Assembly: GCF_900108175.1 (NCBI RefSeq)
Contig: NZ_FNVO01000009.1
Location: 102,744 to 166,743 of the forward strand
Reading direction: 5' to 3'
From: Thermomonospora echinospora
GTDB lineage: Bacteria > Actinomycetota > Actinomycetes > Streptosporangiales > Streptosporangiaceae
Length of the DNA: 64,000 bases
The translations under genes were made by a program, and so were the position numbers. Under the pieces are notes generated by a model. That model saw nothing but the letters and a program-made list of their open reading frames with translations, made no database searches and had not been told where the DNA came from. This document shows, piece by piece, positions 135 through 23,649 of the stretch (its first letter is position 1; every line of letters starts with the position of its first letter).

Positions 135-197
135 CGCCGATCTTGACGTTATTGGACTCTGAACCGCGTTCAGACGACCACAACGTCAAGATCGGCG
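135..197. repeat. Nested perfect palindrome, copy A (arms CGCCGATCTTGACGTT...AACGTCAAGATCGGCG; inner palindrome CTGAACCGCGTTCAG at 159-173)
   Basis: Read directly from the sequence. It lies between the stop of the partial + gene and the 3' end of the - strand ligase (convergent gene ends). Two more copies lie at 23473-23535 and 23588-23649. Confidence 0.9.
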
Positions 198-234
198 AAG
201 GTCTGTAGGCGCCGCAGTAGGCGCCGACGGGCCG

Positions 235-1857
235 CTAGGCTCCGGCGGGGCCGGGGGGCAGGTCCCTGCGGACGATCTTGCCGGTGGCGTTGCGCGGCAG
301 TTCGTCGAGGAAGTGCACGTCCCTGGGCACCGCGAACCTCGCCACCCGGTGGCGGGCGTGCTCGCGCACCTCGTCGGCCGTCAGTTCCACGCCCGGCTTC
401 AGCACCACGTAGGCGGCCAACCGCTGCCCGAAGTCGGTGTCCGGGACGCCGACCACGGTGGCCTCGCGCACCTGGGGCAGGTCGTTCAGGACGTCCTCGA
501 CCTCGCCGGGGAAGACGTTCTCCCCGCCGGAGACGATCATGTCGTCGTCGCGGCCCTGCACGAACAGCCGGCCCCGCTCGTCGATCCGGCCCAGGTCGCC
601 CAGGCTCATCAGGCCGTCGTGCATCTCCTTGGCCGCGCCGTTGGTGTAGCCGGCGAACAGCAGTTCGTTGGCGGCGAAGATCCGCCCGACCGTGCCCGGC
701 GGCACCGGCCGCCCGCCGGAGTCCAAGATGGCCAGCCTGGTCCCGGGCGGCGGGGTGCCGGCCGTGTCGGGGTGGTGCCGCAGGTCCTCGGGGGTCGCGA
801 TGGTCACCCAGGACGACTCGGTGGACCCGTAGAGGTTGTAGAGCACGTCGCCGAAGGCGTCCATGAACCTGGTCGCCAAGCCGCCGGGCAGCGCCGACCC
901 GCTCACCGCCACCACTCGCAGCGCGGACAGGTCGGGCATCTCCTCGGCTCCGGCCTCGGCCCGCCACTCCAGCATGCGCTGCAGCATCACCGGCACCGCG
1001 ACCAGCACGGTGGCCCGGCTGACGGCGGCGGCCCGCAGGCTGCCCTCCGGGTCGAACCGGCGGCGCAGCACCATCGTCGCCCGTAGCGCGATGGCCATCT
1101 GCAGGTTGGCGTAACCCCAGGTGTGGAACAGCGGCGCCTCGATGAGCACCGTCTCGTGCACCCGCAGCGGGATCCGGGAGAGCATCGACGCCAGCGGGCT
1201 GAGGCCCGGCCTGGAGTGCCGGTCGGCTCCCTTGGGCCGCCCGGTCGTCCCCGAGCTGAGCACCACGGTGCGGCCGGGCCTGGGCGGCGGGGCGAGGCGG
1301 GCGTCACCCGCCCGTTCGATCAGCCCGGCCAGGTCCGAGCCGGGGCCGTCGGCGGTCAGGGCGCGCACCGTCTCCGGGGCGCCCTCCAGGACGCCGGTGA
1401 ACTCCGCGTCGGCGACGAGCACCTCGATCCGCTGCTCGTCCAGCACCTTCAGCGACTGCTCGGCGCTCATCCCCGTGTTGAGCAGAACGACATCGGACCC
1501 GAGCTTGCTGCACGCCACCAGGGTCTCCACCATGCCCCGGTGGTTGCGGCACAGCACCGCGACCCGCGGTCTGGCCCCGCCCTCGCCCAGCGCCGTCGCC
1601 AGCCGGTCGGTGCGGGCGTCCACCTCCGCGTAGGTCAGCGCCCCGTAGTCGTCCACGATCGCCGGCCGGTCGGGGTCGCGGGCCGCCGCCGAGATGAACG
1701 ACCCGCCCAGCGTGGTGCCCCACCGCCGGAGCCCGGCCAGTTGCCGCGCCACCCGCGTCGGGTGTCCCGGCCGCCACAGTCCGCTGCGCCCGAACATGAC
1801 GGCGATCCTGAACGCCGCTCCGGCCCGCCGTCCGATCCCGGCCTTTTCCGCCACCAC
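235..1857 (-). CDS. AMP-dependent synthetase/ligase (acyl-CoA synthetase family)
   Basis: Shows the SSGTTGRPKG AMP-binding motif and a C-terminal GEVEDVL...VVGVPD...PRNATGKIVRR motif. A GTG at 1857 is preceded by GGGAGACGGAGAG. An alternative ATG (MFGRSG) lies near 1797. Confidence 0.85.
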   Translation of the reverse strand: MVAEKAGIGRRAGAAFRIAVMFGRSGLWRPGHPTRVARQLAGLRRWGTTLGGSFISAAARDPDRPAIVDDYGALTYAEVDARTDRLATALGEGGARPRVAVLCRNHRGMVETLVACSKLGSDVVLLNTGMSAEQSLKVLDEQRIEVLVADAEFTGVLEGAPETVRALTADGPGSDLAGLIERAGDARLAPPPRPGRTVVLSSGTTGRPKGADRHSRPGLSPLASMLSRIPLRVHETVLIEAPLFHTWGYANLQMAIALRATMVLRRRFDPEGSLRAAAVSRATVLVAVPVMLQRMLEWRAEAGAEEMPDLSALRVVAVSGSALPGGLATRFMDAFGDVLYNLYGSTESSWVTIATPEDLRHHPDTAGTPPPGTRLAILDSGGRPVPPGTVGRIFAANELLFAGYTNGAAKEMHDGLMSLGDLGRIDERGRLFVQGRDDDMIVSGGENVFPGEVEDVLNDLPQVREATVVGVPDTDFGQRLAAYVVLKPGVELTADEVREHARHRVARFAVPRDVHFLDELPRNATGKIVRRDLPPGPAGA

Positions 1858-2071
1858 CGCTCTCCGTCTCCCGCCGGCACATGGGGACGGCCGTCCCGCC
1901 GGCGCCGGCGAATGCCGAGAGTAGGCAGCGGAATCGGCCGATCGCCATGAATCCGGCCCACCCGCCGGTCTCGTCTTTTATCACCCAGTTGACATATCTC
2001 CGTCACCGCGTGCCGCTAACTTCCTCGCCCACGGAAATCGTCCCGGTGGTCTGTCCGAGCAGCCCTCGGGG

Positions 2072-2662
2072 GTGGTCAAAGGAAGCACATGCGTTGACCC
2101 GGGGCCGTGGCGTCCGCACGATGGCGGCATGGATGATCGGACGGCCGCCGCGCTGGACCTGCTCGCCGGACGAGGTGCGGAGGAGATCGCACATCCCGGC
2201 GGAACACTGCTGGCTCACCTTCAGCGCGTCCACGCCATGCTGGAACGGTGGCGGGTACGTCCGGCGGTGCGGCTGGCGGGGCTGTGCCACGCGTTCTACG
2301 GCACGGACGGGTTCGCCACCGCGCTGGGCGAGACGAGCCGCCGGGCGGAACTGGTCGCGTGCATCGGCGAGGAGGCCGAGAACCTCGTCTACTTCTACGC
2401 GAGCTGTGACCGCGCCTCCTCCTATCCGGAACTGGCGCGCGGCGGGCCGTTCCGGGACCGCTTCAGCGGCGAGCGGTCCGATCCCCCGCCCGCCGCCCGC
2501 CGTGACTTCGCGGAGCTCACGGTGGCGAACGAACTGGACCTCGTCGAGATCAACCCCGAGTTCCGCGAACGGTACGGCCCCGGGTTGCGCGACCTGTTCA
2601 CCTCCTGGGACGCGCTGCTCGGCGACGCCGCCCGGCACGCCGTCCGCACCGTACTGCCCTGA
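2072..2662 (+). CDS. Hypothetical protein (196 aa, non-repetitive, conserved-looking LLAHLQRVHAMLERW...HAFYGTDGF motif)
   Basis: The ORF lies between two - strand genes with no overlap. A GTG at 2072 follows a GGGGG tract, and an alternative ATG (MDDRTAA) lies at 2129. Its composition looks like a genuine globular protein. Confidence 0.5.
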   Translation: MVKGSTCVDPGPWRPHDGGMDDRTAAALDLLAGRGAEEIAHPGGTLLAHLQRVHAMLERWRVRPAVRLAGLCHAFYGTDGFATALGETSRRAELVACIGEEAENLVYFYASCDRASSYPELARGGPFRDRFSGERSDPPPAARRDFAELTVANELDLVEINPEFRERYGPGLRDLFTSWDALLGDAARHAVRTVLP

Positions 2663-2699
2663 TCCGCCCGACCACCCTGACAGCGGGCGAGCGGCCCGC

Positions 2700-5600
2700 C
2701 TACGAGACCGTCTGCCCGCTCCAGGGCCCCAGGAAGTCCGCCGGGGTCTGCCGGAGCGCTTCGCCGAACGCCTCGTCGCCCAGCGCGGCACGGATTCGCC
2801 GGGTGACCCGCTCGACGTCGCCCCGCTCGCCGTCCGGCAGCGGCGCCCCCACGGACTCCCGGATCCCGGCCGCCTCACCGAGCAGCCGCGCGGCCTGCCG
2901 CGGGTCGCCCGCCAGCGAGTGCGCCCCCGCCAGCCCTTCCAGCGCCAGCGCCACGGCCCGGGGATCCCCGGACGGCCCCTCGTCTTCGGCGTGGCCGGTG
3001 GCGGCGGCCAGGGCCTCGGTGTGCAGGGCCAGGGCCGCCTGCGCGTCGCCCCGCTGTTCGGCGACGAAGCCCAGCTCGGCCAGGACGAAGGAGACCCCGG
3101 CGTCGCCGTTCACCTGACGGAGCCACGCCAGCCAGCGGCGCAACTGGCGGTCGGCCTCGTCGAGCCGGCCCTCGCGACGGGCCACCAGGCCCAGGCCGAC
3201 GCCGGCGTACTCCTCGGCGGACTTGTCACCGTGCTCGGCGGCCAGCCGGCCGGCGCGGTCGTGCAGTGCGCGCGAGCCGGCCAGGTCGCCGGTGAGCAGC
3301 GCGATCCGGCCCAGGCCGGACAGCGCGAACGACACCTGCCCCCACAGGCCCAGGTCCTCGGCGACGCGCAGGATCTCGCCGCGGAGCCGGGCGGCGCGGT
3401 CGTAGTCGCCGACGATCTCGGCGTGCTTGCCCAGGGCGTCGGTGGCCTCGATCAGGCCCCAGTCGTCGCCGAGGTCGCGGAAGAGGGCCCGGCTGCGCTC
3501 GGCGTCGCGTTCGAGGGCGGCCAGGTCAGCCCGGCTCAGGGCCAGCTTGGCGCGGGTGCCGAGCGCGGCGGCCGTCCCCCACCGGTCGCCCAGGAGGCCG
3601 AAGGTCGCCAGCGCTCCGTCCAGCCGAGTCTCATGCGCCGACAGGTCGCCATAGGCCCAGCGGACGAACGTCAGGAACCACTCCGCCCTGGCGTGCCCCG
3701 CCCGGTCGCCGGTCTCCCGGTAGTGCGCGAGCGCCGCCTCTCCCTCCTCGGCCGCGCCGAAGTCGTCCCCAGCGGCCACCTCCATGCCCGCTCGCCAGCA
3801 CATGGCCTGGGCGCGGACGGCGGCGGGCGCCGGGCCATCGATCGACAGCGCCAGGGCGAGCGAGCGGCGGGCCTCGCCCAGCCGCCCCCGCAGGTACCAG
3901 TACCAAGCCAGCGCGTTGACCAGGCGCAGACCCTGGTCGGCGGCATGCCGGCGGGCCGCCCATTCCAGTGCGCCGCGCAGGTTGGCGGCCTCCAGGTCGA
4001 GCAGTTCGAGCGACCGCCGCTGCCCGCTACCGCGCAGCGACGGCTCGGTGCTCACGGCCAGGTCGGTGTAGTAGCGCAGATGCCGGTCCCGGACCCGCGC
4101 CTGCTCCCCCGCCTCCTCCAGGCGTTCGGCGCAATATGCGGCCACCGACTCCAGCAGGCGGTAGCGCACCTCCCCGGAGCCCCGCGGGGCCGCCACCACC
4201 AAGGAACGGTCCACCAGGCGTGACAGCAGGTCGGGCACGTCCGCCCGCTCGACGCCGTCGCCCGCGCAGACCGTCTCGGCGGCCTGGAGGGTGCAGCCGT
4301 CGGGGTGAACGGCCAGCCGGCGCAGCACCGCGCGCTCCGGCCCGGTCAGCGGCTCCCAGCTCCAGTCGATCACGGCGCGCAGCGTCCGCTGCCTGGCCGG
4401 GGCGTCGCGCCGCCCGCCGGTCAGCAGCCGGAACCGGTCGTCCAGGCGGGCGGCCAGTTCCCGCACGCCCAGCGCCCGTACCCGGGTGGCGGCCAGTTCC
4501 AGCGCCAGCGGCAGGCCGTCCAGCCGCGCGCAGATCACCGCGACCGCCGGGCCGGTGCTCTCGTCGAGGATGAATCCGGGCGCCGCGGCGGCGGCCCGCG
4601 CCGCGAACAGCCGCACCGCGCTCGACTCCGGCGGCCCGCCTGCGGGCGCCGCCGGATCGGGCAGGTCCAGCGGCGGGACGGCCTGGACCCGTTCTCCGGA
4701 GATCCCCAGCGGTTCTCGGCTGGTGGCCAGGATGCGCAGCTCCGGCGCCGTCCGCAGCAGCAGCGCGGTCAGCTCGGCGGCGGACTCGACCACGTGCTCG
4801 CAGTTGTCGAGGACGAGCAGCACCCGCCTGCCCCGCAGCGCGGCGGCCAGGTGCGCGGCAGGTTCGAGGCGGCGCCGGCCGGGGGGAGGTCCGGACGCCG
4901 CGTCGTCGCGGACGTCCAGCACGGCCCCCACGGCCTCGGCGACGGACGCGCCCGGCTCCAGCGAGGCGAGTTCGACCAGCCACACGCCGTCGGGGAACTC
5001 ATCGGTGAGCCCGGCGGCCGTCGCCAGGGCCAGCCGTGTCTTGCCGACCCCGCCCGGCCCGGTGAGCGTCACCAGCCGGTCGGTCTCCAGCAGCGCTGTC
5101 GCCCGGCGTACGGCCTCCGCCCTGCCGATGAGGTCGCCGAGCTGGGCGGGCAGGTTGGTACGGGGACGCTCGGCGGCGGGGGCGAGGGCGGGATCCTGCC
5201 GGAGCATCGCCTGGTGGAGCGCCACGAGCGCGGGGCCAGGGTCCACGCCCAGTTCGTCGGCCAGCCGCTCGCGTAGTTCCCGGTAGCCCGCCAGCGCCTC
5301 GCCCTGCCGGCCGGCTCGGTAGAGGGCCAGCAGATGTGCGGCGCGCAGCCGTTCCCTGAGCGGGTGCCGGGACACCGGATCCGCCAGCTCGCCCGCCAGC
5401 AGGGCGTGCTCTCCCAGCTCCAGGCGAGCCTCGGCCTGTTCCTCCAACACCAGCAGCCGCTGCTCCTCCAGCCCGGCGATCTCCGCCTGGAGGAACGGGG
5501 CGTCGGCGAAGTCGGCGAATGCGGGCCCCCGCCACAGCGCGAGCGCGTCCGACAGCAGCCGCACGCGGGTGCGCGGGTCGGTGGCCCGCCGCGCCCGCTC

Positions 5601-5930
5601 GGCCAGCAGGCCGAAGCGCCCGGCGTCCACCGCGTCGGCGCCCACCTGTAGGGCGTAGCCGCCCGCCCGCCGGATGACGAGGGCGCGGGCCCCCGGTTCG
5701 GCGGCCTCCAGCGCCCCGCGCAGCTGGGAGACGCGGGCCTGGAGGGTGGCGGCGGGGCTGCGGGGCGGGCGGCCGGGCCACAGGTCATCGACCAGCCGGT
5801 CCGCCGGTACGGGGCGTCCCCGGTGGGCGAGCAGATCGGCCAGCAGGGCGCGGACCTTCACCTCAGGCACCCTGACCGGTTCGCCGCCGTCCGTCCACAC
5901 CGCCAGCGGACCGAGCACCCCGAAGCGCAC
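2700..5930 (-). CDS. SARP/AfsR-family transcriptional regulator (OmpR-type winged helix + BTAD + NB-ARC-like ATPase + TPR)
   Basis: N-terminus MRFGVLGPLAVW...VPEVKVRALLADLL...LVDDLWPGRPP is the canonical SARP DNA-binding plus BTAD region. A P-loop GPGGVGKTRLA and C-terminal TPR-like repeats follow. Many shadow ORFs on the other strand are ignored. Confidence 0.85.
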   Translation of the reverse strand: MRFGVLGPLAVWTDGGEPVRVPEVKVRALLADLLAHRGRPVPADRLVDDLWPGRPPRSPAATLQARVSQLRGALEAAEPGARALVIRRAGGYALQVGADAVDAGRFGLLAERARRATDPRTRVRLLSDALALWRGPAFADFADAPFLQAEIAGLEEQRLLVLEEQAEARLELGEHALLAGELADPVSRHPLRERLRAAHLLALYRAGRQGEALAGYRELRERLADELGVDPGPALVALHQAMLRQDPALAPAAERPRTNLPAQLGDLIGRAEAVRRATALLETDRLVTLTGPGGVGKTRLALATAAGLTDEFPDGVWLVELASLEPGASVAEAVGAVLDVRDDAASGPPPGRRRLEPAAHLAAALRGRRVLLVLDNCEHVVESAAELTALLLRTAPELRILATSREPLGISGERVQAVPPLDLPDPAAPAGGPPESSAVRLFAARAAAAAPGFILDESTGPAVAVICARLDGLPLALELAATRVRALGVRELAARLDDRFRLLTGGRRDAPARQRTLRAVIDWSWEPLTGPERAVLRRLAVHPDGCTLQAAETVCAGDGVERADVPDLLSRLVDRSLVVAAPRGSGEVRYRLLESVAAYCAERLEEAGEQARVRDRHLRYYTDLAVSTEPSLRGSGQRRSLELLDLEAANLRGALEWAARRHAADQGLRLVNALAWYWYLRGRLGEARRSLALALSIDGPAPAAVRAQAMCWRAGMEVAAGDDFGAAEEGEAALAHYRETGDRAGHARAEWFLTFVRWAYGDLSAHETRLDGALATFGLLGDRWGTAAALGTRAKLALSRADLAALERDAERSRALFRDLGDDWGLIEATDALGKHAEIVGDYDRAARLRGEILRVAEDLGLWGQVSFALSGLGRIALLTGDLAGSRALHDRAGRLAAEHGDKSAEEYAGVGLGLVARREGRLDEADRQLRRWLAWLRQVNGDAGVSFVLAELGFVAEQRGDAQAALALHTEALAAATGHAEDEGPSGDPRAVALALEGLAGAHSLAGDPRQAARLLGEAAGIRESVGAPLPDGERGDVERVTRRIRAALGDEAFGEALRQTPADFLGPWSGQTVS

Positions 5931-7088: not shown

Positions 7089-7967
7089 TCAGGAGTTGGG
7101 GCAGGTGTCGCGGTAGTCGGAGATGTCGCCGATGGCGCGAGGGGCCGGGCACAGGAACTGGTCGTAGCGGGTGTCGTCGTCGATGTACCGCTTCATCCAG
7201 CTGATCATGTACTTGGCCATGGTGGTGTTGGAGACCTGCGGGAAGAAGTGGCTGGCGTTGTCCAGCTCCAGGTAGGCCTTCTCACGGGCGTTCGACAGGC
7301 TGTTGTAGAAGGGGATGGAGTGGCTGGCGACCGAGGCGACGGCGTCGGACTCGCCGCCGATGATCAGGGTGGGGGTCCGCACCTCGGGCCAGGTCTTGTC
7401 GGTGTTCCAGGGAGCCAGCGGGATGGCGGCCTTGAGTGAGGTGCGGTCCTTGGCGGCTTCCAGGGTGCCGCCGCCGCCCATGGAGTGGCCGGCCACCGCC
7501 AGGCGGGAGGCGTCGACACGGGTGCGGACCGAGCTGCGCTGGGTGAGGTAGTCCAGGGCGGCCAGGAGCTGGTCGCCGCGGCTGGCGGGCTGGTCCAGGG
7601 TGGTGTTGGTCTCGATGCCGATGACCACGAAGCCCTGGGAGGCCAGGCGGGGGCCGAGCCAGTCCAGGCTGGACCAGTAGGCGGTGAAGCCGGGGGAGAT
7701 GGCGATGGCGCCGAAGGTGCCCTCGCTGGTGGTGGTGGGGTAGTAGATGACGCCGCCGCCGAAGCCGGTCACGCTCAGGGACGAGACGGTGGTCTGCGAG
7801 GTGGCGAACGGGCCGCGCACCGCGGTCACGCTGGACTCGGTCGGGGCCGGCCCACGCTCATAGGGGTTGGCCGCCGCGTTCGCGGCCGGAGCCGCGACGA
7901 TGGCGCTGCCGGCCAGGGCCAGCAGCGCGGGGAGGGTCCGCAGCTTGCGCGCCAGGTTCGTGTTCAT
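7089..7967 (-). CDS. Secreted cutinase / polyester (PET) hydrolase, dienelactone-hydrolase fold, close homolog of the Thermobifida fusca TfCut2 / LCC type
   Basis: Has a signal peptide ([31 protein letters not shown]). The mature N-terminus ANPYERGP follows. The catalytic Ser lies in GHSMGGGG, with Asp in GGESDAV and His in DNASHFF. The Cys pair FLCPAP...YRDTCPNS is conserved. Start MNTN has the RBS GGAGAAAGGA. Confidence 0.9.
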
Positions 7968-8237
7968 CGGTCGGGTCGTCCTTTCTCCTGCGCCCTCGGC
8001 GGGGCGGGGGGTGCCGAGGACTTCCAGGAGTCTTGGTGTGGACGCACCCATCCGGCATCGGTGAAATCACCGGCCGTATGCGAAACCCCAGGATCGGCGG
8101 CGTTCGCTGTGAACGACCACAGCGGGCGGCGGGACCGGCGATGCGCGCCGACAGTGTTGGCGCCTTCCGATTGACCGCCCACCTTCGGCGGACGACCCTG
8201 CTGGAACTCCGGCGCCGAGCTGGACGCATGTGTCGAA

Positions 8238-10044: not shown

Positions 10045-11262
10045 TCAGCCGCGGGTGGGCTCGTTCCGGCCCACCAGCTTGAGCGCGCTGAGCGCGAGCA
10101 CCACCTCGACCAGCTCCCGGGGCCGGTTCAGCGAGCGCCCGGTGAGCTGCTCGATGCGGCGCAGCCGATTGAGCACCGTGTTGTGGTGGCAGTACAGCCG
10201 GGTGGCCGCCCGGGACGCCGAGCCGTCGCAGTCCAGCCAGGTGGTCAGCGTGGACACCAGCACGTCCCGGAAGGCCGGGTTCACCTCGGCGAAGGCGCCC
10301 AGCACCCCGCGGCCCAGCCGGTCGGCCAGCTCGGGCTGGGAGACCACCAGCGCGTCCGGCAGCCGCCGGTCCAGCCGGGCGATCTCGGCGCCGGGCTCCC
10401 GGCAGGTGCGCAGCGCCAGCTCGGCCAGCCAGCGGGCCTTGCCCAGGTCGGCCAGCGTGTCCACGACCGGGCTGATCCCGGCGTGGCCGTGCACCCGCGG
10501 CCGCAGCACCTCCACCAGTTCCGCCAGGTCGGCGGTGCCCAGGCCGACCAGGGCGAGCTGGGTGTCGGCCCGCATCCGCCAGATGAACCGCAGACCGCCG
10601 CCGTCGGCGGGCCGGCTGAAGCCCCGCCCGTCCAGCATGTCGCTCTGGTCGATCACCACCACCGCGTAGCGGCCCTGGGCGGGCAGCCCGAGCGCGCGGG
10701 TGGCCGCCGGCAGCAGCCCGGGGTCGGTGCCGCGCCCCTCCAGCAGCGCGTCGACGATCGCGTGCACCCGCTCCTCGCTGCGGCGCAGCAGCTCGTACTC
10801 GGTGCGGTGGTAGGCCTCCGCGGCGGTGGTGGACTGCTGGTCGATGGTGTGCCAGGTCTGGGTGGCGTTGCGGACCAGCATCGGCACGTGCGCCGGGTCC
10901 TCCTCGCTGACGACCTCGACCAGGCCCTCCCAGAACACGCAGCCGGCCAGCCGGTAGGAGCGCAGCAGCTGGTCCAGCGGCAGCCCCTGCTCGGCGCGGC
11001 GCCGGCCCAGCTCCTCGGCCCAGCGCAGGTCGGCGCGGCCGCGGCCGGGGTCCAGGATCGCCTCGATGCCGTGGCCCAGCCCGATGTGAGACAACTCCCA
11101 CAGGTCGGCGCGCAGTTCGGCTGGACGATCCTGCCCCTCTCCGGCGAGGATCTCGTTGACCAGCCGGTCCGCCAGTTGCGGCAGATGGTCCGAAAGCCTG
11201 CGCACCGCCCGCCGGATGATCGTGCGGTCGGCCTTGTCGGACGAGGTTGTGAGTGCACCCAT
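10045..11262 (-). CDS. PucR/CdaR-family transcriptional regulator
   Basis: The C-terminus ...ATRLYCHHNTVLNRLRRIEQLTG is the PucR-type HTH. The ATG (MGALTTSS) is preceded by GAGGGAGGTGG. The longer track ORF reaching 11361 is rejected. Confidence 0.8.
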   Translation of the reverse strand: MGALTTSSDKADRTIIRRAVRRLSDHLPQLADRLVNEILAGEGQDRPAELRADLWELSHIGLGHGIEAILDPGRGRADLRWAEELGRRRAEQGLPLDQLLRSYRLAGCVFWEGLVEVVSEEDPAHVPMLVRNATQTWHTIDQQSTTAAEAYHRTEYELLRRSEERVHAIVDALLEGRGTDPGLLPAATRALGLPAQGRYAVVVIDQSDMLDGRGFSRPADGGGLRFIWRMRADTQLALVGLGTADLAELVEVLRPRVHGHAGISPVVDTLADLGKARWLAELALRTCREPGAEIARLDRRLPDALVVSQPELADRLGRGVLGAFAEVNPAFRDVLVSTLTTWLDCDGSASRAATRLYCHHNTVLNRLRRIEQLTGRSLNRPRELVEVVLALSALKLVGRNEPTRG

Positions 11263-11345
11263 GCGCCACCTCCCTCGGTGAGTGCGCTCATGCTGCCATC
11301 GCCCCCACCGCGACGCTATATAAGCGATCCAACAAAAAGCCGGGA

Positions 11346-11361
11346 TTGTGTGCGCACACAA
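11346..11361. promoter_or_regulatory. Perfect 16-bp palindrome TTGTGTGCGCACACAA in the divergent CdaR / LAL-regulator intergenic region (candidate operator)
   Basis: Read in the sequence about 85 bp upstream of the CdaR start. It is flanked by an unusually AT-rich tract (CGCTATATAAGCGATCCAACAAAAAG). Confidence 0.4.
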
Positions 11362-11679: not shown

Positions 11680-14523
11680 ATGCCACCCGACTCACTGTTG
11701 GCCCCTCCCCCGGCCCCTGAAACGGCCGCCACGACGGCCACCGCGCCGGAGCCCGTCGCCGCGCACCGTCCCGTCCTGCACGGGCGGGACGAGGAGCTGG
11801 CCGAGCTGCGCGACCTGGTCTCCCGCACCCGCCGCGGACGGGGCGGCGCACTGGCGATCGTGGGCGGTCCCGGCCTCGGCAAGACCGCCCTGCTGGACGC
11901 CGCCGCGGGCGAGGCCGGGCCGGACTTCCGTGTGATCGGCACCCGTGGCGTGCGGGGCGAGGCCCGGTTCGCGCTGGCCGGCCTGCACCGGATGCTGCGG
12001 CCGGTGGCCGCGTGGCTGGACCGGCTGCCGGCCGAGCAGGCCGCCGCGCTGGCCTTCCTGACCGACGCGGGGGCCGAGCCGCCCGCCGAGCCGTTCGCGC
12101 TGTGCCGCGCGGTGTACGGCCTGCTGTCAGAGCTGGGCCGGGACGGTCCGCTGCTGTGCCGGATCGACGACGCGCACTGGCTGGACCGGCCGTCCCTGGA
12201 GGCGCTGACGTTCGCCGCGCGCAGGCTGACGGCGCAGCCGGTGCTGGTGCTGTTCGCCAGCCGCAGCGAGCGCGGCGCGTACGCCGAGCTGGACTGCCTG
12301 GCCGACATCCGGTCGCTGCGGCTGGGCCCGGTCGGCGCCGGGGACGCACTGGCCGTGCTGCGCGACCGGACCGCCGGCTGCTGCGGCGACACCGCCACCG
12401 AGCTGCTGGAGCTGGCCGCCGGGAATCCGCTGGCACTGGTCGAGCTGGCCGCCGAGCTGACCCCCGAGCAGTTGGCCGGGCAGGCGCCGCCGCCCGCCGC
12501 GCTGCCCCGGCGCAGCCGGATGCGCACCCACTACCGGCGGCGGCTGTACCGATTGCCGCCGGGCGCCCGGGCGCTGGTGCTGCTGGCGGTCGTCGACGAC
12601 CGGCTGGAGCTGGACACCCTCACCCGGGCCGCCACCGAGGCCGGGATCGACCTGGCCGAGTGGGAGACCGCCCGCTCGTCCGGGCTGGTGCGGGTGGACG
12701 GCGAGGCCGTCCGGGTGCGCGACCCGCTGGTGCGCGGCTGCCTGTACGCGGACGCGGCGCTGAACGAGCGGCACGCGGCGCACCGGCTGCTGGCCCGGGT
12801 GCTCGACCGGCCCTGGCACCGGCTGCGCCGCGACCTGCACCGGGCGGCGGCCGCCGAGGGGCCGGACCCGGCGCTGGCCGACGAGCTGTGCGCGGGCGCC
12901 GCCCAGGCCGCGGCGGCGGGCAACCACCACGACGCGGCCCGCGCCTGGCGGCGGGCGGCGACGCTGACCCCCGACCCGGCGACCAGGGCCGACCGGCTGC
13001 TGGCCGCCGCCGAGGACTTCTGGCAGGCCGGCCGGCCGCACACCGCCCGGATGCTGCTGCGGCAGGCCCGGCCGCTGATCCGTTCGCCGTGGCCGGCCGG
13101 GCGGGCCGACCGGCTGCTGGGGGAGATCGAGCTGCGCGCCGGGCAGCCGGCCGTCGCCGGGCGGCTGCTGCTGGAGGCGGCCGACCGGCTGGCCGAGCCG
13201 CACGGCGGCCTGGCGCTGGCGGCGCTGATGTCGGCGGCCGAGGCCGCCGACCTGTCCGGCGACCTGCACGCCCAGCGTCGGGCGGCCCGGCTCGCCGCCG
13301 GTCTACGGCATCCGGCCGGGCATCCGGTGACCGAGCTGATGGCGGCGCACATCGCCGGGATGACGGCCACCGTCCACGGTGACCACGAACAGGCCGGGCA
13401 GTCGCTGCGGCGGGTGGTCGAGCTGGGCGGCGCCAGTCCCGACCCGGTGGCCAAGGTCTGGGGCAGCGTCGCGGCCATCACCCTCGGCCGGGACCTGCGG
13501 GCCTACGAGCTGGCCGTGCAGGCGGTGCACGGCTCGCGGCGGTCCGGGGCCACGGCGCTGCTGCCGTGGTCACTGGTCACCCTGTCGCTGGTGGAGTGCC
13601 TGCTGGGCCGGTTCCATGCCGCGCTGGCCGACTCGGCGGAGGGGCTGCGGCTGGCGCGGGCCGCCGGGCAGGACAACTGCGCGGTCGACCATCTGGCCCT
13701 GATGGCGCTGGTCAGCGCGTTCCAGGGGGACCGCGAGGCCACCGCGTCCCATCTGGCGGCCGTCGCCGAGCCGATCAGCACCCGCGGGCTGAGCCGGCCG
13801 GCCACAGTGGCGTCGTGGGCGCTGGCCTGCCTGAAGCTGGCCGACGACCGGCCCGCCGACGCCGCCGCCCGGCTGCGGCTGCGCACCGTGACCGGGGCCC
13901 AGCACCGCACCATCCGGGTGCTGGCCGCCCCGTACTTCGTGGAGGCGGCCGTCCGCAGTGACCAGCGGCGGCAGGCCGTGCAGGCGTTGGAGACCTACGA
14001 GCGGTGGGCCGAGGGCACCCGCAGTCCCGGCCGGCTGGCGCTGGCGCATCGCTGCCGGGCGCTGCTGGCCGGCTGCGATGAGGCGGCGGTGGCGCACTTC
14101 GAGGAGGCGCTGCGGCTGCACTCCTCCGCCGAGTCGGCGTTCGAGCTGGCCCGTACCGCGCTGTTGTACGGGCACCGGCTGCGGCGCGGCCGGCGGCCCC
14201 GCGCCGCCCGCGACCATCTGCGCGACGCCCTGCAGATCTTCACCGAGTACGGGGCCGAGCGGTGGGCCGAGCGGGCGCGGGCGGAGCTGCGCGCGGCCGG
14301 GGAGACGGTCGAGCCGGCCGCCCGCGACTGCGCCCCGGCCGGGCTGGACGAGCTGACCCCGCAGCAGTTGCAGATCGCCCGGCTGGTCGCCGAGGGCGCC
14401 ACCAACCGGGAGATCGCCGCCCAGCTCACCCTCAGCCCGCGCACCATCGAGCACCATCTGCGCAACATCTTCACCCGGCTGGACATCCGTTCCCGGGTGG
14501 AGCTGACCATGCTGCTGCGCTGA
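11680..14523 (+). CDS. LuxR-family regulator of the LAL type (N-terminal AAA/P-loop ATPase, C-terminal LuxR HTH)
   Basis: Has a P-loop GGPGLGKTALL. The C-terminus LTPQQLQIARLVAEGATNREIAAQLTLSPRTIEHHLRNIF is the LuxR HTH. RBS GGGAAGGAG lies before the ATG at 11680. Confidence 0.85.
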   Translation: MPPDSLLAPPPAPETAATTATAPEPVAAHRPVLHGRDEELAELRDLVSRTRRGRGGALAIVGGPGLGKTALLDAAAGEAGPDFRVIGTRGVRGEARFALAGLHRMLRPVAAWLDRLPAEQAAALAFLTDAGAEPPAEPFALCRAVYGLLSELGRDGPLLCRIDDAHWLDRPSLEALTFAARRLTAQPVLVLFASRSERGAYAELDCLADIRSLRLGPVGAGDALAVLRDRTAGCCGDTATELLELAAGNPLALVELAAELTPEQLAGQAPPPAALPRRSRMRTHYRRRLYRLPPGARALVLLAVVDDRLELDTLTRAATEAGIDLAEWETARSSGLVRVDGEAVRVRDPLVRGCLYADAALNERHAAHRLLARVLDRPWHRLRRDLHRAAAAEGPDPALADELCAGAAQAAAAGNHHDAARAWRRAATLTPDPATRADRLLAAAEDFWQAGRPHTARMLLRQARPLIRSPWPAGRADRLLGEIELRAGQPAVAGRLLLEAADRLAEPHGGLALAALMSAAEAADLSGDLHAQRRAARLAAGLRHPAGHPVTELMAAHIAGMTATVHGDHEQAGQSLRRVVELGGASPDPVAKVWGSVAAITLGRDLRAYELAVQAVHGSRRSGATALLPWSLVTLSLVECLLGRFHAALADSAEGLRLARAAGQDNCAVDHLALMALVSAFQGDREATASHLAAVAEPISTRGLSRPATVASWALACLKLADDRPADAAARLRLRTVTGAQHRTIRVLAAPYFVEAAVRSDQRRQAVQALETYERWAEGTRSPGRLALAHRCRALLAGCDEAAVAHFEEALRLHSSAESAFELARTALLYGHRLRRGRRPRAARDHLRDALQIFTEYGAERWAERARAELRAAGETVEPAARDCAPAGLDELTPQQLQIARLVAEGATNREIAAQLTLSPRTIEHHLRNIFTRLDIRSRVELTMLLR

Positions 14524-15418: not shown

Positions 15419-15422
15419 TCCG

Positions 15423-17363: not shown

Positions 17364-17412
17364 GCCCCGAGTATGACCCGGCCCCGCCCGCCGGTAAATG
17401 GGGTCCGCGGTC

Positions 17413-18606: not shown

Positions 18607-18674
18607 CGATGCGGAACAACGACGAGTCGCTGATGATGGGATCAGCCGGGCTCATCGATCGAGGACGGGGGCCG

Positions 18675-19574
18675 ATGACGCGGATGGACCTGCGCGAACT
18701 GGAATGCTTCCTGGTGCTGAGCCGGGAACTGCATTTCGGGCGGACGGCCGAGCGGCTCTACCTGTCGCAGAGCCGGGTGAGCCAGTTGCTGCGCTCCCTG
18801 GAGCACCGGGTCGGCGCCCCGCTGGTGGAACGCACCAGCCGCCGGGTCCGGCTCACCCCGCTCGGCGAACGCTTCCTGGAGGACGTGCGCCCCGCCTTCG
18901 AGTCGCTGCACGAGGCGATGGAGCGCGCCCGCGCCGCCGCCCGGGGGGTGGACGGGACGCTGCGGGTCGGGTTCGTCGGGACCCCGAACGCGGCGGTGAT
19001 GGGCACCGTACTGGCCTTCCAGGAGGGCGGCCACGGCACCGAGGTCGAGGTCGTGGAACTACCGCTGGCCGACCCGTTCGGGCAGGTCCGCTCGGGAGAG
19101 GTGGACGCGGCGTTCGTGTGCCTGCCGGTGGCCGAGCCCGGCCTGGTGGTCGGCCCCACGTTCCCCGCGCAGCCGGTCACGGTGGCGGTGTCCCGCACCC
19201 ATCCGCTGGCCGGGCGGGCCGCCGTCCACGTCGAGGAACTGGCCGACCACCCGCTGATCCAGATCGCCGACCCGGCGCCGCGGTACTGGGCGGAGATCTT
19301 CTCCCCGGCCGTCACGCCCGCCGGCCGGCCGATCCCGCGCGGCCCGGTGGTCGCCACCCTCCAGGAGGCGCTGACCATGATCGCGGCAGGCCGGGGCGGG
19401 CTGCTGTTCTGCGCATCGACGGCCGCCTACCACTGCCGGCCGGACACCACGTTCGTGCCGGTCGAGGGACTACCGGAGTCCCGGTTCGGGGTGGTGTGGC
19501 GATGCGCCGGAGAGAACGCCCGCATCCGCGCCCTGGCCTGCGCCGCAACCGCCGCCGCCACGAACTCGGCGTAG
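18675..19574 (+). CDS. LysR-family transcriptional regulator
   Basis: N-terminus MDLRELECFLVLSRELHFGRTAERLYLSQSRVSQLLRSLE is the LysR HTH. RBS GAGGACGGGGG lies before the ATG. It forms a divergent pair with the MFS gene. Confidence 0.85.
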   Translation: MTRMDLRELECFLVLSRELHFGRTAERLYLSQSRVSQLLRSLEHRVGAPLVERTSRRVRLTPLGERFLEDVRPAFESLHEAMERARAAARGVDGTLRVGFVGTPNAAVMGTVLAFQEGGHGTEVEVVELPLADPFGQVRSGEVDAAFVCLPVAEPGLVVGPTFPAQPVTVAVSRTHPLAGRAAVHVEELADHPLIQIADPAPRYWAEIFSPAVTPAGRPIPRGPVVATLQEALTMIAAGRGGLLFCASTAAYHCRPDTTFVPVEGLPESRFGVVWRCAGENARIRALACAATAAATNSA

Positions 19575-19617
19575 GGCGGGACGCAGCCCCGTCGCCCTGC
19601 GCGGGGCCTGGGCGTGG

Positions 19618-20082
19618 TCAGGTGGCCTCGTCCAATTGTTTGGCCAGCCGCTCCAGGCCGCCCCTGATGAGCTGCCCATACCCGTCGTCGCCAAGCGCGC
19701 CGATCTCGGCCCGCGCCTGCTGGAGGTGCTCACGGGCGCGGTCGAAATCGCCCAGCTTGCGATAGCACTCACCCAAGTTCAGGTGCAACGACGGATACAG
19801 GCCGGCCACTGAAAGCGGCACCCCGGCTTGAGCCACCCGCTCATCGGTGACGAGAGCGACGGCGGCGAGCGCTCGCAGATCCCACATCAGCTCCTGGCGC
19901 ACGTCGTCCTGCACGTCGGCCATCGAGTGGGCGAGGACGCAAACATGCAGCGGGTCGCCTTGCTCACCGCCGATGTCGTCCCAGATCTGCGCGAACAGGT
20001 CGCGAGCGGCTTCACGCTGACCCTGGTGGTGATGCAACTCCACCGCCTGGCCGATCCGGGTCATCGTCGGGTCGGTGGTCAT
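19618..20082 (-). CDS. Tetratricopeptide-repeat protein (small, cytosolic)
   Basis: TPR-like helical repeats are visible (LNLGECYRKLGDFDRAREHLQQA). The ATG (MTTDP) is preceded by GAAGGAG. Confidence 0.6.
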   Translation of the reverse strand: MTTDPTMTRIGQAVELHHHQGQREAARDLFAQIWDDIGGEQGDPLHVCVLAHSMADVQDDVRQELMWDLRALAAVALVTDERVAQAGVPLSVAGLYPSLHLNLGECYRKLGDFDRAREHLQQARAEIGALGDDGYGQLIRGGLERLAKQLDEAT

Positions 20083-20252
20083 GTGCAGCTCCTTCACCAC
20101 AGCGGGCAATCGCGGTCAGCCTACTGACCCGACGTGCCTTACGGCCTTCAAAGCTGCTGACCGCCGCCGTCCCCGCTGAGCACCCACCACAGACCGTCCC
20201 GCCTCACTCGACGCATAAGCCGATGACCTGCGGCTTGTCCCGATCTGCCCGC

Positions 20253-21107
20253 TCAGCTTCTGGAGCGCTGCGGTGGTGTCGTCGCTGGTGCATCCGTGAT
20301 GGCACGCTGGGTGCCGACGTGCTGGAGTTCGGCGAGGAAAAAGCCCGTGGCGTACACGGCCGAGCAGTCCAGCAGCCGCCACGGGCTGCCGGTCACCAGC
20401 ATCTCCAGCTCGTACGGCGACACCATCAGCCGGTCGAACCACGCCGACGCCCAGCACCGGTATCGCAGCCGCATCCGCACCTGGCCGGGCATCCGGCCGG
20501 CCTTGCGGTTCGTGTCGTGGTAGCGCAGGTGCTCGGGCGGGCGTACGGCGTAGGGGTCGCGTCCGATCGCGTACATGCGGGCGCCCGGACGGGCCAGCCT
20601 CGCCAGGCTGCCGAGCACCTTCGGGGCCTGCTCGCGGCTGCCGAGCAGACCGAGGTTGCCGCCGAGGAGCATGATCGTGTCGAACGTACCGAGGTCGCCG
20701 GGCCGCTGAACGGTGCCGAGCCGGGCGTCCAGGCCGCGCGACCGGGCCACCTCGACCGCGCCCGGCGACGGGTCGATGCCGACGACCTCCTGGCAGTTCC
20801 GCATGGCGATCATGTGGCGGCCCGCCCCGCACCCGACGTCCAGGACCCGCCCGGCCGCCAGCTCGACCGCGCGGCGCTCCGGAACCATCCACTCGTCGGG
20901 GCGGGTGAAGTAGCGGAAGGCGTCCTCCACGCTCACGAAGCCGTCGGACCGCTCGATCACCTGCCGTGCGACGCCGCGGCGGGCACCGGCCCGGTAGCAG
21001 TCGCGCAGCAGCTCGCCGAAGCCGTCCACGCCGGGCACCTGCGGCGACTCGGCGGCGGCCCCGTAGTCCAGGCAGCCTTTGGCTGGAGTATCCATGGTTG
21101 TTCTCAC
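20253..21107 (-). CDS. Class I SAM-dependent methyltransferase
   Basis: Contains motif I VLDVGCGAGRH. An alternative start lies at 21095. Confidence 0.8.
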   Translation of the reverse strand: MRTTMDTPAKGCLDYGAAAESPQVPGVDGFGELLRDCYRAGARRGVARQVIERSDGFVSVEDAFRYFTRPDEWMVPERRAVELAAGRVLDVGCGAGRHMIAMRNCQEVVGIDPSPGAVEVARSRGLDARLGTVQRPGDLGTFDTIMLLGGNLGLLGSREQAPKVLGSLARLARPGARMYAIGRDPYAVRPPEHLRYHDTNRKAGRMPGQVRMRLRYRCWASAWFDRLMVSPYELEMLVTGSPWRLLDCSAVYATGFFLAELQHVGTQRAITDAPATTPPQRSRS

Positions 21108-21296
21108 TCTCGGGATGGCGGATGTGCCGACCCCTCCTCAGCATCGGCACATCCGCGTCTCGGAAGGAGCAGCGGCCCCAGGGGGTCGGATGAGGCCGCC
21201 ACCCCGCTCTACTGGCCGCCGGCCTCGCCCTGACCGGTACGCCAGGTGGGCCGTACGAACACGGCATCCATCACCGCGCCCCCATCCCGGCGCGGT

Positions 21297-21746
21297 TCAC
21301 GCGGGGCTCGCTATCAGCCCGAGCCGGGTCAAGGCCCGGCGGAACCGCCCTGGTCGGCGGACGGCCTCATGGCGGCCGTGGCGGGCCGCCGGGGTGGTGG
21401 AGCCCCCGCCCGCCGGACGATGCTGCGGCCTCCGGCGGGCGGGGGGCTGGTCCCCGAGCGGTCTGCGGCGCTGGGCCTGGCGCTGCGGGAGGACCGGCCG
21501 GGGGGTCGGGGGGAGAAGCTGCTTGTAGTGCTGTTCGAGCAGGGCGGACAGGCCGGCGGCGGTGTGCGCCTCGATCAGGCCGGTCGCACCGGTCGGCGCG
21601 GCCAGCCACCGGCCGGACTTGGGTCCGTACCAGGCGGCGGCGTCGGGGAACTGGGCACGAAGCTCGCTCTGCTGCCGGTGCCGCGTCTGCTCCTGCGAAC
21701 GAGGTACGGGGATCGGCCACGCAGGGGGCGCTAGGCTCTTACTCAC
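21297..21746 (-). CDS. Candidate hypothetical protein (149 aa, Pro/Arg-rich C-terminus)
   Basis: Third-codon-position GC in this frame is about 93%, as in the bona fide genes here. A GTG start is preceded by AGGAAAGCGAG. There are no recognisable motifs. Confidence 0.35.
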   Translation of the reverse strand: MSKSLAPPAWPIPVPRSQEQTRHRQQSELRAQFPDAAAWYGPKSGRWLAAPTGATGLIEAHTAAGLSALLEQHYKQLLPPTPRPVLPQRQAQRRRPLGDQPPARRRPQHRPAGGGSTTPAARHGRHEAVRRPGRFRRALTRLGLIASPA

Positions 21747-21943
21747 GTCAGGACTCGCTTTCCTGGCCAGGCCCCGGAACTCCCCGACGTTGCAGCGTCG
21801 GGCCGGGGCCGCTTGGTTACACATGGTTAGTGAAACCACGTCACACGGCGTAGGCCAGAGGGCATGATGGGGGGACTGGCCGACCCCCCTAGGGGGACGT
21901 CCGCTCCCCCAGGGGTGCGGGGTGACCGGAAGGTGCACGCACC

Positions 21944-23335
21944 ATGAGCCGAGCCGAAAGACGAGCCAAGATCACCCCCGAAGGACGCGCCAGAGGAGCG
22001 CGCCTGCGGACCGAACGCGACCATCGCGGATGGGGCCGCCGCGAGTTGGCCCGCCTCCTGCTCGACGCCATCGATGACAGGCAAAAACCCTCACACGTCA
22101 CCGTCGCCAGCCACATCAAAGAATGGGAGGATGGCGGCGGAATCTCCGCCATGTACCGCACCGCCTACGCCACAGTGTTCGACCTCCCTGAGGCCGAACT
22201 ATTCGCCCCCACCCAGGCCACCCCGCCACTCTCGCCGTCCGACTCCGGCGAGGTCCGCGCCGTTCAAGAGCTTTCGCAGCCCTATTCCACCGACCCGATG
22301 GGTACCGTGGGCGTGAGCCCTGTTCCCGACTTCAGGGATGACGACATGAGACGTCGCGCTGCACTCCAGTTGCTGGCCGCGCTCGGTGCGGGAACGGCCA
22401 TCCCACCGGGATCTCTCGAAGGCGTCCTCAGCGGGATCGATGATGCGCTCGGCAACCCTCTCGATCTGGACGAGTGGGAGCGCACCGTCCACGAGTACGG
22501 GCAGTTGCTCATCACCCGGCCGGCCGGAGCCCTGACCAGGGACCTGACCTCCGACATCATCACCGTCGGCGAATTGCTCAGGCGGCAGCTCGCCGAACCG
22601 GAGCGGCAGCGGATGCTGCGGGTCAGCGCCGGATTGTCGGCATGTCTGGCGATCAACTTGGGGGACCGGGGCGACATCCGTGCCGTACGCACCGCTTGGG
22701 CCACCGCCATACGCGCCGCTGACGCCTGCGGCGATACGGACCTGCGTGTATGGGTGCGTGGCCGGGCCGCCCAGGAAGCTTGTTGGACCGGACGGCCGAC
22801 CTCCACCGTCGTCGCCCTGGCCGACGAAGCCGTCACGATCGCGGACGGGGGGCCGTCCGCCGGGCTGGCCCGCGCTCATGCCGCACGCGCCTACGCCGCC
22901 GTCGCCCAGGGCGACACCGCCCAGGCCTATGCCTCCCTGGCCAAGGCCAAGCGCACGTTCGACGGGCTTCCGCACCAGGACGGACAGTCGGTGTTCGCTT
23001 TCCGGCAGAGCCAGTTGCGGTGGACCGAGTCCTACGTGCACGCCCTCTCCGGGGACCGCCGGGCTCACGCGACGGTGGCGGAGGCTGAGAGCCTCTACCC
23101 ACCCGACGCGCACGGCCCCCGCTCGAACCTGGCGCTCATGGACGCGGCTGCGCTCATCCAGGCGCGGGAGGTGAAGACGGGACTGGAGCGGGCGATCACC
23201 GCCCTGGAACGCCACCCTGACGCCGCGACCGCCGGAAGGGCGTCGCTGACAGGACAGATCCTACGGACACTGCCACCCGAGGCCCGCAGGCTGCCCGCTG
23301 CCCGCGAACTGCAAGCGCTGACGGCCAGCGCCTGA
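21944..23335 (+). CDS. XRE-family helix-turn-helix regulator (Streptomyces-type, long C-terminal helical domain)
   Basis: The N-terminal HTH (GWGRRELARLL) and RBS GGAAGG support the call. Confidence 0.75.
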   Translation: MSRAERRAKITPEGRARGARLRTERDHRGWGRRELARLLLDAIDDRQKPSHVTVASHIKEWEDGGGISAMYRTAYATVFDLPEAELFAPTQATPPLSPSDSGEVRAVQELSQPYSTDPMGTVGVSPVPDFRDDDMRRRAALQLLAALGAGTAIPPGSLEGVLSGIDDALGNPLDLDEWERTVHEYGQLLITRPAGALTRDLTSDIITVGELLRRQLAEPERQRMLRVSAGLSACLAINLGDRGDIRAVRTAWATAIRAADACGDTDLRVWVRGRAAQEACWTGRPTSTVVALADEAVTIADGGPSAGLARAHAARAYAAVAQGDTAQAYASLAKAKRTFDGLPHQDGQSVFAFRQSQLRWTESYVHALSGDRRAHATVAEAESLYPPDAHGPRSNLALMDAAALIQAREVKTGLERAITALERHPDAATAGRASLTGQILRTLPPEARRLPAARELQALTASA

Positions 23336-23472
23336 TCATCCGCCGTTCCTCAGAGGAACATCCGTACCCCTAACGGGCGCGGGCAACCCAGAAGGTGTGC
23401 GCACCATCAGCCGAGACCGCCCCAAAGAACGCACTAGCGCAGCACCCCCAACATCCCCCGCCCAGCGGATCC

Positions 23473-23535
23473 CGCCGATCTTGACGTTATTGCACCCTGA
23501 ACCGCGTTCAGGCAACAATAACGTCAAGATCGGCG
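23473..23535. repeat. Nested perfect palindrome, copy B (arms CGCCGATCTTGACGTTATTG / CAATAACGTCAAGATCGGCG; inner 17-bp palindrome CCTGAACCGCGTTCAGG)
   Basis: Read in the sequence. It lies between convergent gene ends (XRE + / PaaI -). Confidence 0.9.
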
Positions 23536-23587
23536 GGAATTGAACGCTCTGCGGACGCGCTCACACCCCCTCTACACTCCGAATTTC

Positions 23588-23649
23588 GGCGATCTTGACG
23601 TTATTGCGCTCTAGGTGCCGTTCAGCCTGCAATAACGTCAAGATCGGCG
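23588..23649. repeat. Nested palindrome, copy C (same 20-bp arms; inner part degenerate)
   Basis: Read in the sequence 53 bp after copy B, giving a tandem pair. Confidence 0.9.

Follow-up and report, generated by a model that had tools for sequence, protein, structure and literature searches.

The 64-kb stretch of the Thermomonospora echinospora genome analysed here (assembly GCF_900108175.1, contig NZ_FNVO01000009.1, positions 102,744 to 166,743; hereafter the window, with all coordinates relative to its first letter) carries three copies, A, B and C, of a nested palindrome lodged between convergently transcribed genes, and these belong to a widespread actinomycete family of extragenic palindromes, cognate pairs of which bracket genes for a predicted AbiEi-DUF559 nuclease in many lineages. 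Six instances of the 20-nt arm CGCCGATCTTGACGTTATTG are present in the window when up to two mismatches are allowed, forming three inverted pairs (135-154/178-197 in A, 23473-23492/23516-23535 in B and 23587-23606/23630-23649 in C), where 100 shuffles gave an expectation of 0.00. The nested palindromes at 135-197 and 23473-23649, pointed out in a first-pass annotation that had relied on the letters and open reading frames (ORFs) of the window, are thus real, and all three do sit at convergent gene ends as it had stated, although the unit measures 63 nt rather than the 62 bp given there. The palindromes and their flanks are as follows:

99..134, plus strand: C-rich leader of copy A, directly after the TGA (96-98) of the upstream plus-strand ORF; resembles the leaders of B and C in alignment
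135..197, no strand: palindrome copy A, 63 nt, CGCC-GATCTTGACGTT...AACGTCAAGATC-GGCG
198..247, plus strand: G-rich flank on the right of copy A, resembling that of copy C; includes the minus-strand stop (235-237) of an AMP-binding enzyme gene
23438..23472, plus strand: C-rich leader of copy B, from flank similarity in alignment
23473..23535, no strand: palindrome copy B, 63 nt, with perfect symmetry out to 23470-23538 (TCC...GGA)
23536..23586, plus strand: 51-nt spacer serving as the leader of copy C, with which it makes the second 114-nt tandem unit
23587..23649, no strand: palindrome copy C, 63 nt; one arm mismatch (CGGC for CGCC) and a divergent, weakly paired core

Copy A is placed between a plus-strand ORF ending at 98 and the minus-strand AMP-binding gene ending at 235, and copies B and C between a plus-strand XRE gene ending at 23335 and a minus-strand 4HBT thioesterase gene ending at 23905. 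The inner stem-loop of copy A is CTGAAC-CGC-GTTCAG, and its right arm has two mismatches (CCACAACG in place of CAATAACG). Copy B, with 23-nt arms free of mismatches and an inner 7-bp stem, is indeed the extended perfect palindrome that had been described, whereas copy C, said to be perfect apart from a variant arm, has that variant but not the perfect core. Folding prediction, suggested as a check in the first-pass annotation, returned stable single-strand hairpins for all three (-48.8 kcal/mol and z -8.7 for A; -53.9/-55.6 kcal/mol and z about -11 to -12 for B; -41.2/-37.2 kcal/mol for C), spanning -37 to -56 kcal/mol and z-scores of -5.5 to -11.8. A (52.7/55.6 bits), B (59.6/64.6 bits) and C (53.3/50.8 bits), i.e., 50-65 bits, were the sole matches in the window to a covariance model of the family described below, the next best (20.6 bits) being unrelated. 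A search for extra single arms with up to two mismatches turned up 22 in all, against 1.5 expected; those other than the six arms of A, B and C are all coding (GTC-AAG-ATC codons) and are rejected by the covariance model.

The likeness of the three copies extends beyond the palindrome per se: the left 50-nt flanks of A and B (p=0.0035) and of B and C (p=0.0045) are alike, as are the right 50-nt flanks of A and C (p=0.006), and a repeat search aligned 23537-23649 with 23423-23535 at a spacing of 114. A 114-nt leader-plus-palindrome unit is duplicated in tandem as copies B and C, and the repeated unit here therefore exceeds the palindrome, encompassing a C-rich leader, the palindrome and a right flank, even if the flank similarity of the three copies holds only modestly. 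Tandem duplication at B/C is also the best account of why copy A has a B-like left and a C-like right flank; the hybrid nature of copy A noticed earlier is retained, but not the proposed resolution of one A-like site into two.

A dispersed, sharply bounded palindrome family

Representative genomes were scanned with the pattern GATCTTGACGTT-N(15-45)-AACGTCAAGATC, both arms exact, for which about 0.1 chance matches would be expected in the entire collection. This yielded at least 115 loci from about 23 assemblies of actinomycetes, the carriers including Nocardiopsis sp. CNT-189, N. potens and Actinorugispora endophytica, as well as metagenome-assembled genomes (MAGs) of Frankiaceae, Geodermatophilaceae, Mycobacteriales, Pseudonocardiales and Nocardiopsaceae; those of Nocardiopsis sp. 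CNT-189 are scattered along its whole 6.8-Mb chromosome. With so many loci in so many assemblies, the window palindromes are not local operators, and the dispersed repeat favoured in the first-pass annotation, which had offered an operator duplication as the alternative should the 62-mer prove unique, is clearly what is seen.

The outer GATC-to-GATC distance is 56 nt in 83 copies, 55 nt in 26 (those of the window included) and 66 nt in 13. Pairing stays at about 90% for exactly four positions beyond GATC (consensus C-G-N-N) and drops to background thereafter, so that the unit is a sharply bounded one of 63/64 nt (74 nt in the 66-nt class), composed of CGNN-GATCTTGACGTT, a variable interior and the mirror image. 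The interior varies among lineages and even inside one genome with its self-complementarity kept, and the 5' flanks are C-rich (G-poor) on either strand throughout the family. A second copy is found within 8 kb in about one sixth of the fetched loci, and tandem dimers are rare (two among about 138 copies, namely window B/C and L026).

No target-site duplication above control was found at boundary offsets of 0-8 and lengths of 2-8, the sole exceptions being self-complementary dinucleotides, which speaks against the foldback MITE (miniature inverted-repeat transposable element) suggested at first pass. Rfam, searched at gathering thresholds and at a permissive E-value, gave only chance matches to generic microRNA hairpins; the plasmid collection held no match to the window copies or to the Nocardiopsis consensus; viral contigs yielded zero matches; and a literature search by sequence words retrieved primer coincidences only. 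An integron attC site was considered as well and rejected, as it needs RYYYAAC/GTTRRRY ends, a cassette array and intI, while the ends here are CGNNGATC, the copies are dispersed and there is no integrase near those of the window.

Several variants of the basic layout deserve mention. In Nocardiopsis sp. CNT-189, several copies (L052, L078, L083, L091, L108 and L050) lie within a further inverted repeat outside them (AGATCGTTGATGGGAGA ... TCTCCCATCAACGATCT), which has a C-rich insert at one side that makes it asymmetric; they appear to be palindromes within palindromes. The 66-nt class of Frankiaceae (L008, L085, L102, L025, L051) has a non-palindromic, oriented interior with a third arm-like motif (GATCTCGACGTT or GATTTCGACGTT), which would give three putative binding sites per element. 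In a Frankiaceae MAG (L028, 2009-2649), two palindromes with identical interiors enclose a small gene for a putative lipoprotein (signal peptide and Cys), and the arrangement looks like a repeat-bounded gene cassette. Actinorugispora endophytica carries at least four copies (L013, L022, L034, L040; 79-92% identity) of a region of about 2.4 kb with an HATPase_c_2 gene and a palindrome 31 nt past its stop; one edge of the region is a second palindrome (L013 4353-4407; L040 2692-2747) and the other runs beyond the palindrome, and the idea of a palindrome-bounded multi-copy unit was dropped, since only one side is so bounded.

Placement at gene ends and maintenance of the palindrome

Gene contexts were assigned for 122 copies with a gene caller based on the GC content of third codon positions: 53 copies are convergent, 34 co-directional, 7 divergent, 7 apparently within a call and 21 at the edges of their loci, the usual distance past the stop codon being 10-40 nt, and in about seven copies and three DUF559 genes the T|GATC junction itself forms the TGA stop. 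The palindromes thus follow the 3' ends of genes, with an enrichment where two genes converge, in keeping with the placement remarked upon in the first-pass annotation; the tandem pairs that it had proposed to look for are the exception.

This placement just past stop codons, the convergent enrichment, the very stable hairpins and the C-rich, G-poor 5' flanks on both strands, reminiscent of Rho utilisation (rut) sites, are what a bidirectional terminator or 3'-end stabiliser (intrinsic or Rho-assisted), kept by an RNA-binding factor that reads the double-stranded stem, with no involvement of mobility or of a nuclease, would have to offer, and the same was proposed by Gardner et al. for the 'Tuberculosis Rho-independent terminator' (TRIT; PMC3152330). 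We nevertheless find it unlikely that this is all there is to the family. A consensus scan for U-tract/terminator-like sites came back with zero at the A and B/C loci on both strands (the post-stem sequences of the three copies being AAGGTCTG, GGAATTGA and AAGACACG), and a U-tract is needed by mycobacterial RNA polymerase in vitro (PMC3993855). A canonical intrinsic terminator was therefore discarded for either window locus and either strand, and so was the role of TTGACG as a -35 hexamer, no sigma-70-like promoter having been found at the window copies by the consensus scan.

The manner in which the interior evolves also sits uneasily with an RNA helix. Among 82 distinct 56-nt copies, standard pairs occupy 95.3% of the cells, against 83.9% when shuffled and 29-44% with the partners slid; cells changed on both sides number 227, against 62 in shuffles, and those changed on one side 35; and the covariation score of 0.297 (0.104 in shuffles) was reached by 0 of 500 shuffles. 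Arm mutations are compensated in degenerate copies as well (GACCTT/AAGGTC, GATCGT/ACGATC, GACGCT/AGCGTC). GC-to-CG swaps are common and one-sided G-U-type changes rare, copies between co-directional genes show no G:U excess on the sense strand (7 G:U against 12 A:C mismatches), and in the 56-nt class the symmetry continues through the centre, i.e., through the would-be loop, so that the interior looks like that of a DNA palindrome being maintained and not like an RNA helix. Both of the orthologous loci L042 and L118, which share 79% identity across 4.4 kb, keep the gene and its palindromes, and the interior changes are compensated. Neither would a terminator explain the pairs of palindromes that bracket one particular nuclease gene in many lineages, to which we now turn.

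An AbiEi-DUF559 nuclease gene bracketed by cognate palindromes

Clustering of about 650 neighbour genes from the 115 loci singled out a family of about 275-320 aa (AbiEi_1 plus DUF559/MTES_1575) that is always directly beside a palindrome, the other always-adjacent cluster being one Actinorugispora HATPase paralogue only. With relaxed arm matching, palindromes stand on both sides of the gene in five of the five complete loci (L008, L042, L060, L073 and L092, from five assemblies), whose proteins are 26-56% identical, and the downstream palindrome often overlaps the stop codon. At L008, which belongs to the 66-nt class, the two flanking copies are in inverted orientation.

The association was also approached from the other end, with 20 metagenomic loci picked by protein similarity alone (three query sequences). 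Palindromes of about 55-65 nt flank the gene on both sides in 13 of the 20, and four more have a palindrome on the sole inspectable side or on one side; nearly all of the strong palindromes in these 96 kb are the gene-flanking ones. GATCTTGACGTT is the arm in some loci only, and lineage-specific arms replace it in others (e.g., CGAGTGCGACG..., CGAGATGCGCAAAGG..., CGATCTTGCGGGG..., GACCTTCACGAACC...). The gene is likewise bracketed in Actinorugispora (L138, with GATCTTGACCTT arms and the CGCC...GGCG ends of the window copies), Micromonospora (L141), a MAG (L142), Arthrobacter (L145) and Mycobacterium sp. (L146); two 64-nt copies abut it in Tsukamurella (L144), whose palindrome also occurs solo on eight records; and in Polymorphospora (L139) and N. 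tropica (L147) the only clear palindrome is the downstream one. Altogether, 24 of 34 gene loci are bracketed by cognate palindromes of about 64 nt, and 31 of 34 have one on at least one side. Closely related proteins have an arm type in common, the GAYCTTSACG type being scattered over the tree. The window copies fit the arm and boundary definition of these cognate palindromes (63/64 nt, GAYCTTSACG-type arms, a sharp edge 4 nt out) at 50-65 bits, and their CGCC...GGCG ends are those of the copy overlapping the stop of the Actinorugispora gene (L138 2820-2883).

The protein counts at least 1057 relatives at E<=1e-10, the majority of them from actinomycetes, and no NCBIfam name applies to it. PADLOC AbiEi models match its N-terminal two-thirds, and its sole sequence match in the PDB is the DUF559 structure 3hrl. 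In the AlphaFold model of the Actinorugispora member P0100 (predicted local distance difference test score, pLDDT, 93.6), the N-terminal two-thirds have the Mycobacterium tuberculosis AbiEi antitoxin Rv2827c (1zel) as their best structural match, and the predicted C-terminal nuclease domain matches the catalytic domain of I-Bth0305I (3r3p, TM-score 0.63) and 3hrl; 30 diverse members show no variation in the D...E-x-D-G...H residues. The protein is thus predicted to join a winged-helix DNA-binding domain of the AbiEi kind to a DUF559/Vsr-like nuclease.

The identity of the bracketed gene bears heavily on the readings that invoke transposases. The first-pass annotation had likened the palindromes to repetitive extragenic palindromic (REP) sequences and bacterial interspersed mosaic elements (BIMEs), which can be mobilised by REP-associated tyrosine transposases (RAYTs) of the IS200/IS605 type. 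The dispersed, multi-copy, extragenic nature of the copies, their convergent 3' ends, the lack of target-site duplications and the existence of tandem pairs all agree with that likeness, but mobilisation by such a Y1 transposase appears highly improbable to us: none recurs among the clustered neighbours, the flanked gene being AbiEi-DUF559 instead; tandem dimers are rare; no unpaired GTAG or CGTC tag is present, CGTC lying within the stem; and the stems are of 25-29 pairs, whereas a REP is a 20-40-nt imperfect palindrome with such a tag at one end and stems of 5-13 pairs (PMC3733652).

Classical MITEs, i.e., internally deleted derivatives of an insertion sequence encoding a DDE transposase, with the arms as terminal inverted repeats, would also be multi-copy, intergenic and furnished with inverted arms. 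An internal-deletion route is even suggested by N. tropica L148 (1340-1500, 2404-2500), where the DUF559 gene lies inside a single split palindrome with terminal inverted repeats of about 43 nt (CCCGACTTAACGTCGTTAGCCCACA...), a layout from which a solo palindrome could have arisen by internal deletion. The target-site duplication missing at every offset, the absence of a DDE transposase among the neighbours, interior changes that are compensated instead of decaying and the unit conserved at the orthologous locus make a MITE origin very unlikely all the same.

The 23-kb block and other features of the window

Copy A and the B/C pair delimit a block of 23 kb, and the richness in regulators which the first-pass annotation had remarked upon is there:

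2700-5930: SARP regulator
10045-11361: PucR/CdaR regulator
11680-14523: LAL regulator
18609-19574: LysR regulator
21944-23335: XRE regulator

Since A and the B/C pair are directly repeated at a distance of 23.3 kb and have similar flanks, they might be taken for attachment or recombination sites of an island, or for the ends of an invertible segment. The window gene annotation, however, lists no integrase, recombinase or transposase within the block or next to it, and the GC content of the block (0.70-0.76) is not below that of the remaining window, thus giving no island signature; because of these two observations, the bracketing is regarded as incidental. With the palindrome at no fewer than 115 loci, at unrelated sites in other genomes, and clustering being ordinary given how often a second copy lies within 8 kb, an island delimited by these copies is hardly credible.

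The best homologue in the protein collection is from Thermomonospora amylolytica (69% identity). Synteny with this species was tried and abandoned: its XRE gene, the closest to the 463-aa XRE of the window, is not syntenic and has no palindrome, the 21 kb of L116 being devoid of the family altogether. The XRE homologue there (L116 7664-11338) adjoins a phage-type integrase gene, with an IS605 OrfB/TnpB 8 kb off.

The window holds a number of other features. Within the regulator-rich block, a gene resembling polyethylene terephthalate (PET) hydrolases of the cutinase type is encoded on the minus strand at 7089-8051 (PF12740, E 6.5e-130). Diverged direct repeats at 44702/45102 (211 nt, 82% identity) and 44995/45911 (90 nt, 84% identity) fall in the lowest-GC part of the window (0.67 at 44702-46000). 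A 276-nt unit is repeated six times in tandem at 53872-55551 (76-82% identity) inside the minus-strand ORF 51408-55841 (1477 aa), which looks from its sequence like a repeat-domain protein. Two 29-nt head-to-tail arrays, at 59862-59948 (three copies of CCGCGTCCGCCTGCCGGAGGGTGAGCAAA) and at 63064-63240 (four copies of GCCCCGCGCGGCTGAGCTCATCACGTACG), are not CRISPR-like because they have no spacers; the latter is about 500 nt upstream of a cobalamin riboswitch aptamer at 63747-63972 on the plus strand (RF00174, 58.7 bits, E 5e-12).

Interpretation

The family is dispersed and multi-copy, it is maintained by compensated changes, and cognate pairs of its members bracket AbiEi-DUF559 genes in many lineages. 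With a probability of roughly 0.55, we take the window copies to be Thermomonosporaceae members of this widespread actinomycete family of 63/64-bp extragenic palindromes partnered with the AbiEi-DUF559 nuclease, the mechanistic link between nuclease and palindrome being one in which we have moderate confidence. Under such a partnership, the nuclease would recognise the conserved arms, either as duplex or as an extruded hairpin, and might copy palindromes, home beside them or keep both arms identical; solo copy A and tandem B-C would be non-autonomous partners, which may have spread locally as the longer unit of C-rich leader, palindrome and right flank. Between convergent transcripts, the very stable hairpins probably curb read-through or 3' decay and, as no U-tract is present, would do so as a barrier or a Rho/pause-type element instead of a canonical intrinsic terminator.

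More tentatively, and at odds that we would put below even, the palindromes, and probably TRITs too, could be the non-autonomous half of a repeat-enzyme system, in which AbiEi-DUF559 would bind the arms, cut or nick the hairpin, copy palindromes to new gene ends and keep the arms identical.

A number of observations weigh against the partnership, or make mobility as a part of it no more than putative. The scan demanded exact arms, so that the sample is ascertained for arm conservation; tblastn found no AbiEi-DUF559 gene in the window; and the 8-kb pieces sampled from the Nocardiopsis genomes richest in the palindrome showed no flanked gene. The palindromes of the two N. tropica DUF559 genes are other ones, polymorphism for an insertion or an empty site was not seen, and the gene-plus-palindromes unit is stable at the orthologous L042/L118, so that any mobility is putative. 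The association could equally be one of a gene homing next to pre-existing palindromes. Lastly, predicted mycobacterial terminators of all classes, TRITs included, overlap just 2-4% of mapped 3' ends (bioRxiv 10.1101/2022.06.01.494293).

Elements of the TRIT kind are thus widespread in actinomycetes and evolve like a maintained DNA palindrome; the bracketing nuclease is a testable candidate for the missing factor of TRITs and, conversely, the palindromes provide a function to test for the large DUF559 family. To our knowledge, TRIT-type hairpins have gone unexplained in mycobacterial genomes since 2011; they perform poorly as terminators, and we know of no partner protein for them. On a more practical note, 63-bp perfect palindromes at gene ends could lead assembly, terminator prediction and the calling of small RNAs astray in high-GC genomes.

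Comparison with known systems

The closest described analogue, going by its published description, is TRIT, of which about 147 palindromic copies per genome were reported at M. tuberculosis gene ends as a conserved bidirectional hairpin, tight at stop codons and without a U-tract, for which a sequence-specific binding factor was suspected (PMC3152330). The family described here is likewise a conserved palindromic bidirectional hairpin narrowly placed at stop codons; unlike TRIT, which was reported to be restricted to Mycobacterium and with no associated gene (PMC3152330), it occurs in at least six other actinomycete groups, and its arm sequence differs. The terminator role of TRIT is itself doubtful (PMC3993855; bioRxiv 10.1101/2022.06.01.494293).

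A mycobacterial 62-nt palindrome between convergent genes (L117 1501-1562) has the size and layout of the present family and an arm (CGCGAGCAGACGC...) resembling the 'CGAG' class of DUF559-flanking arms; as a surrogate for TRIT, it scored 15.9 bits (E 0.07) with the family covariance model. This palindrome, confirmed to be present in M. ulcerans, is one that we assume to be TRIT.

On the enzyme side, AbiEi proteins bind inverted repeats. A study on the autoregulation of Rv2827c has been published (PMC7319586). The nuclease resembles AbiEi antitoxins in having Rv2827c as the best structural match to its N-terminal two-thirds; it departs from them in that no AbiEii toxin partner lies beside the genes examined, the C-terminus is a predicted nuclease, and the putative binding sites are genome-wide repeats instead of a single promoter operator. 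The Vsr-like 'EDxHD' homing endonuclease I-Bth0305I joins a DNA-binding module to a Vsr-like nuclease and has a pseudopalindromic target (PMC3239194), and a comparable combination of an N-terminal sequence-specific DNA-binding region and a C-terminal Vsr-like nuclease is predicted here. Members of that class reside in introns or inteins and disrupt their target, whereas the present gene is free-standing between two intact palindromes, and most palindromes are gene-less.

The literature on DUF559, MTES_1575 and AbiEi offered no link to palindromic repeats, its coverage being incomplete and the result amounting to absence of evidence only. Shared with the REP/REPIN-RAYT systems are the high copy number of the palindromes, their extragenic position at gene 3' ends, the lack of target duplication and an evolution that preserves the hairpin and, with RAYTs in particular, one enzyme gene between two cognate repeats, the repeat class following the enzyme lineage. 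The enzyme, in turn, is predicted to be a winged-helix plus PD-(D/E)xK (Vsr-like) nuclease and not an HUH Y1 transposase, and the repeat is one long near-perfect 63/64-bp palindrome paired to its very ends (CGNN...NNCG), with no unpaired GTAG/CGTC tag. The analogy points to an apparently undescribed repeat-enzyme partnership resembling REP/RAYT, which, if true, would be a second, mechanistically different counterpart of that system, built on another catalytic fold.

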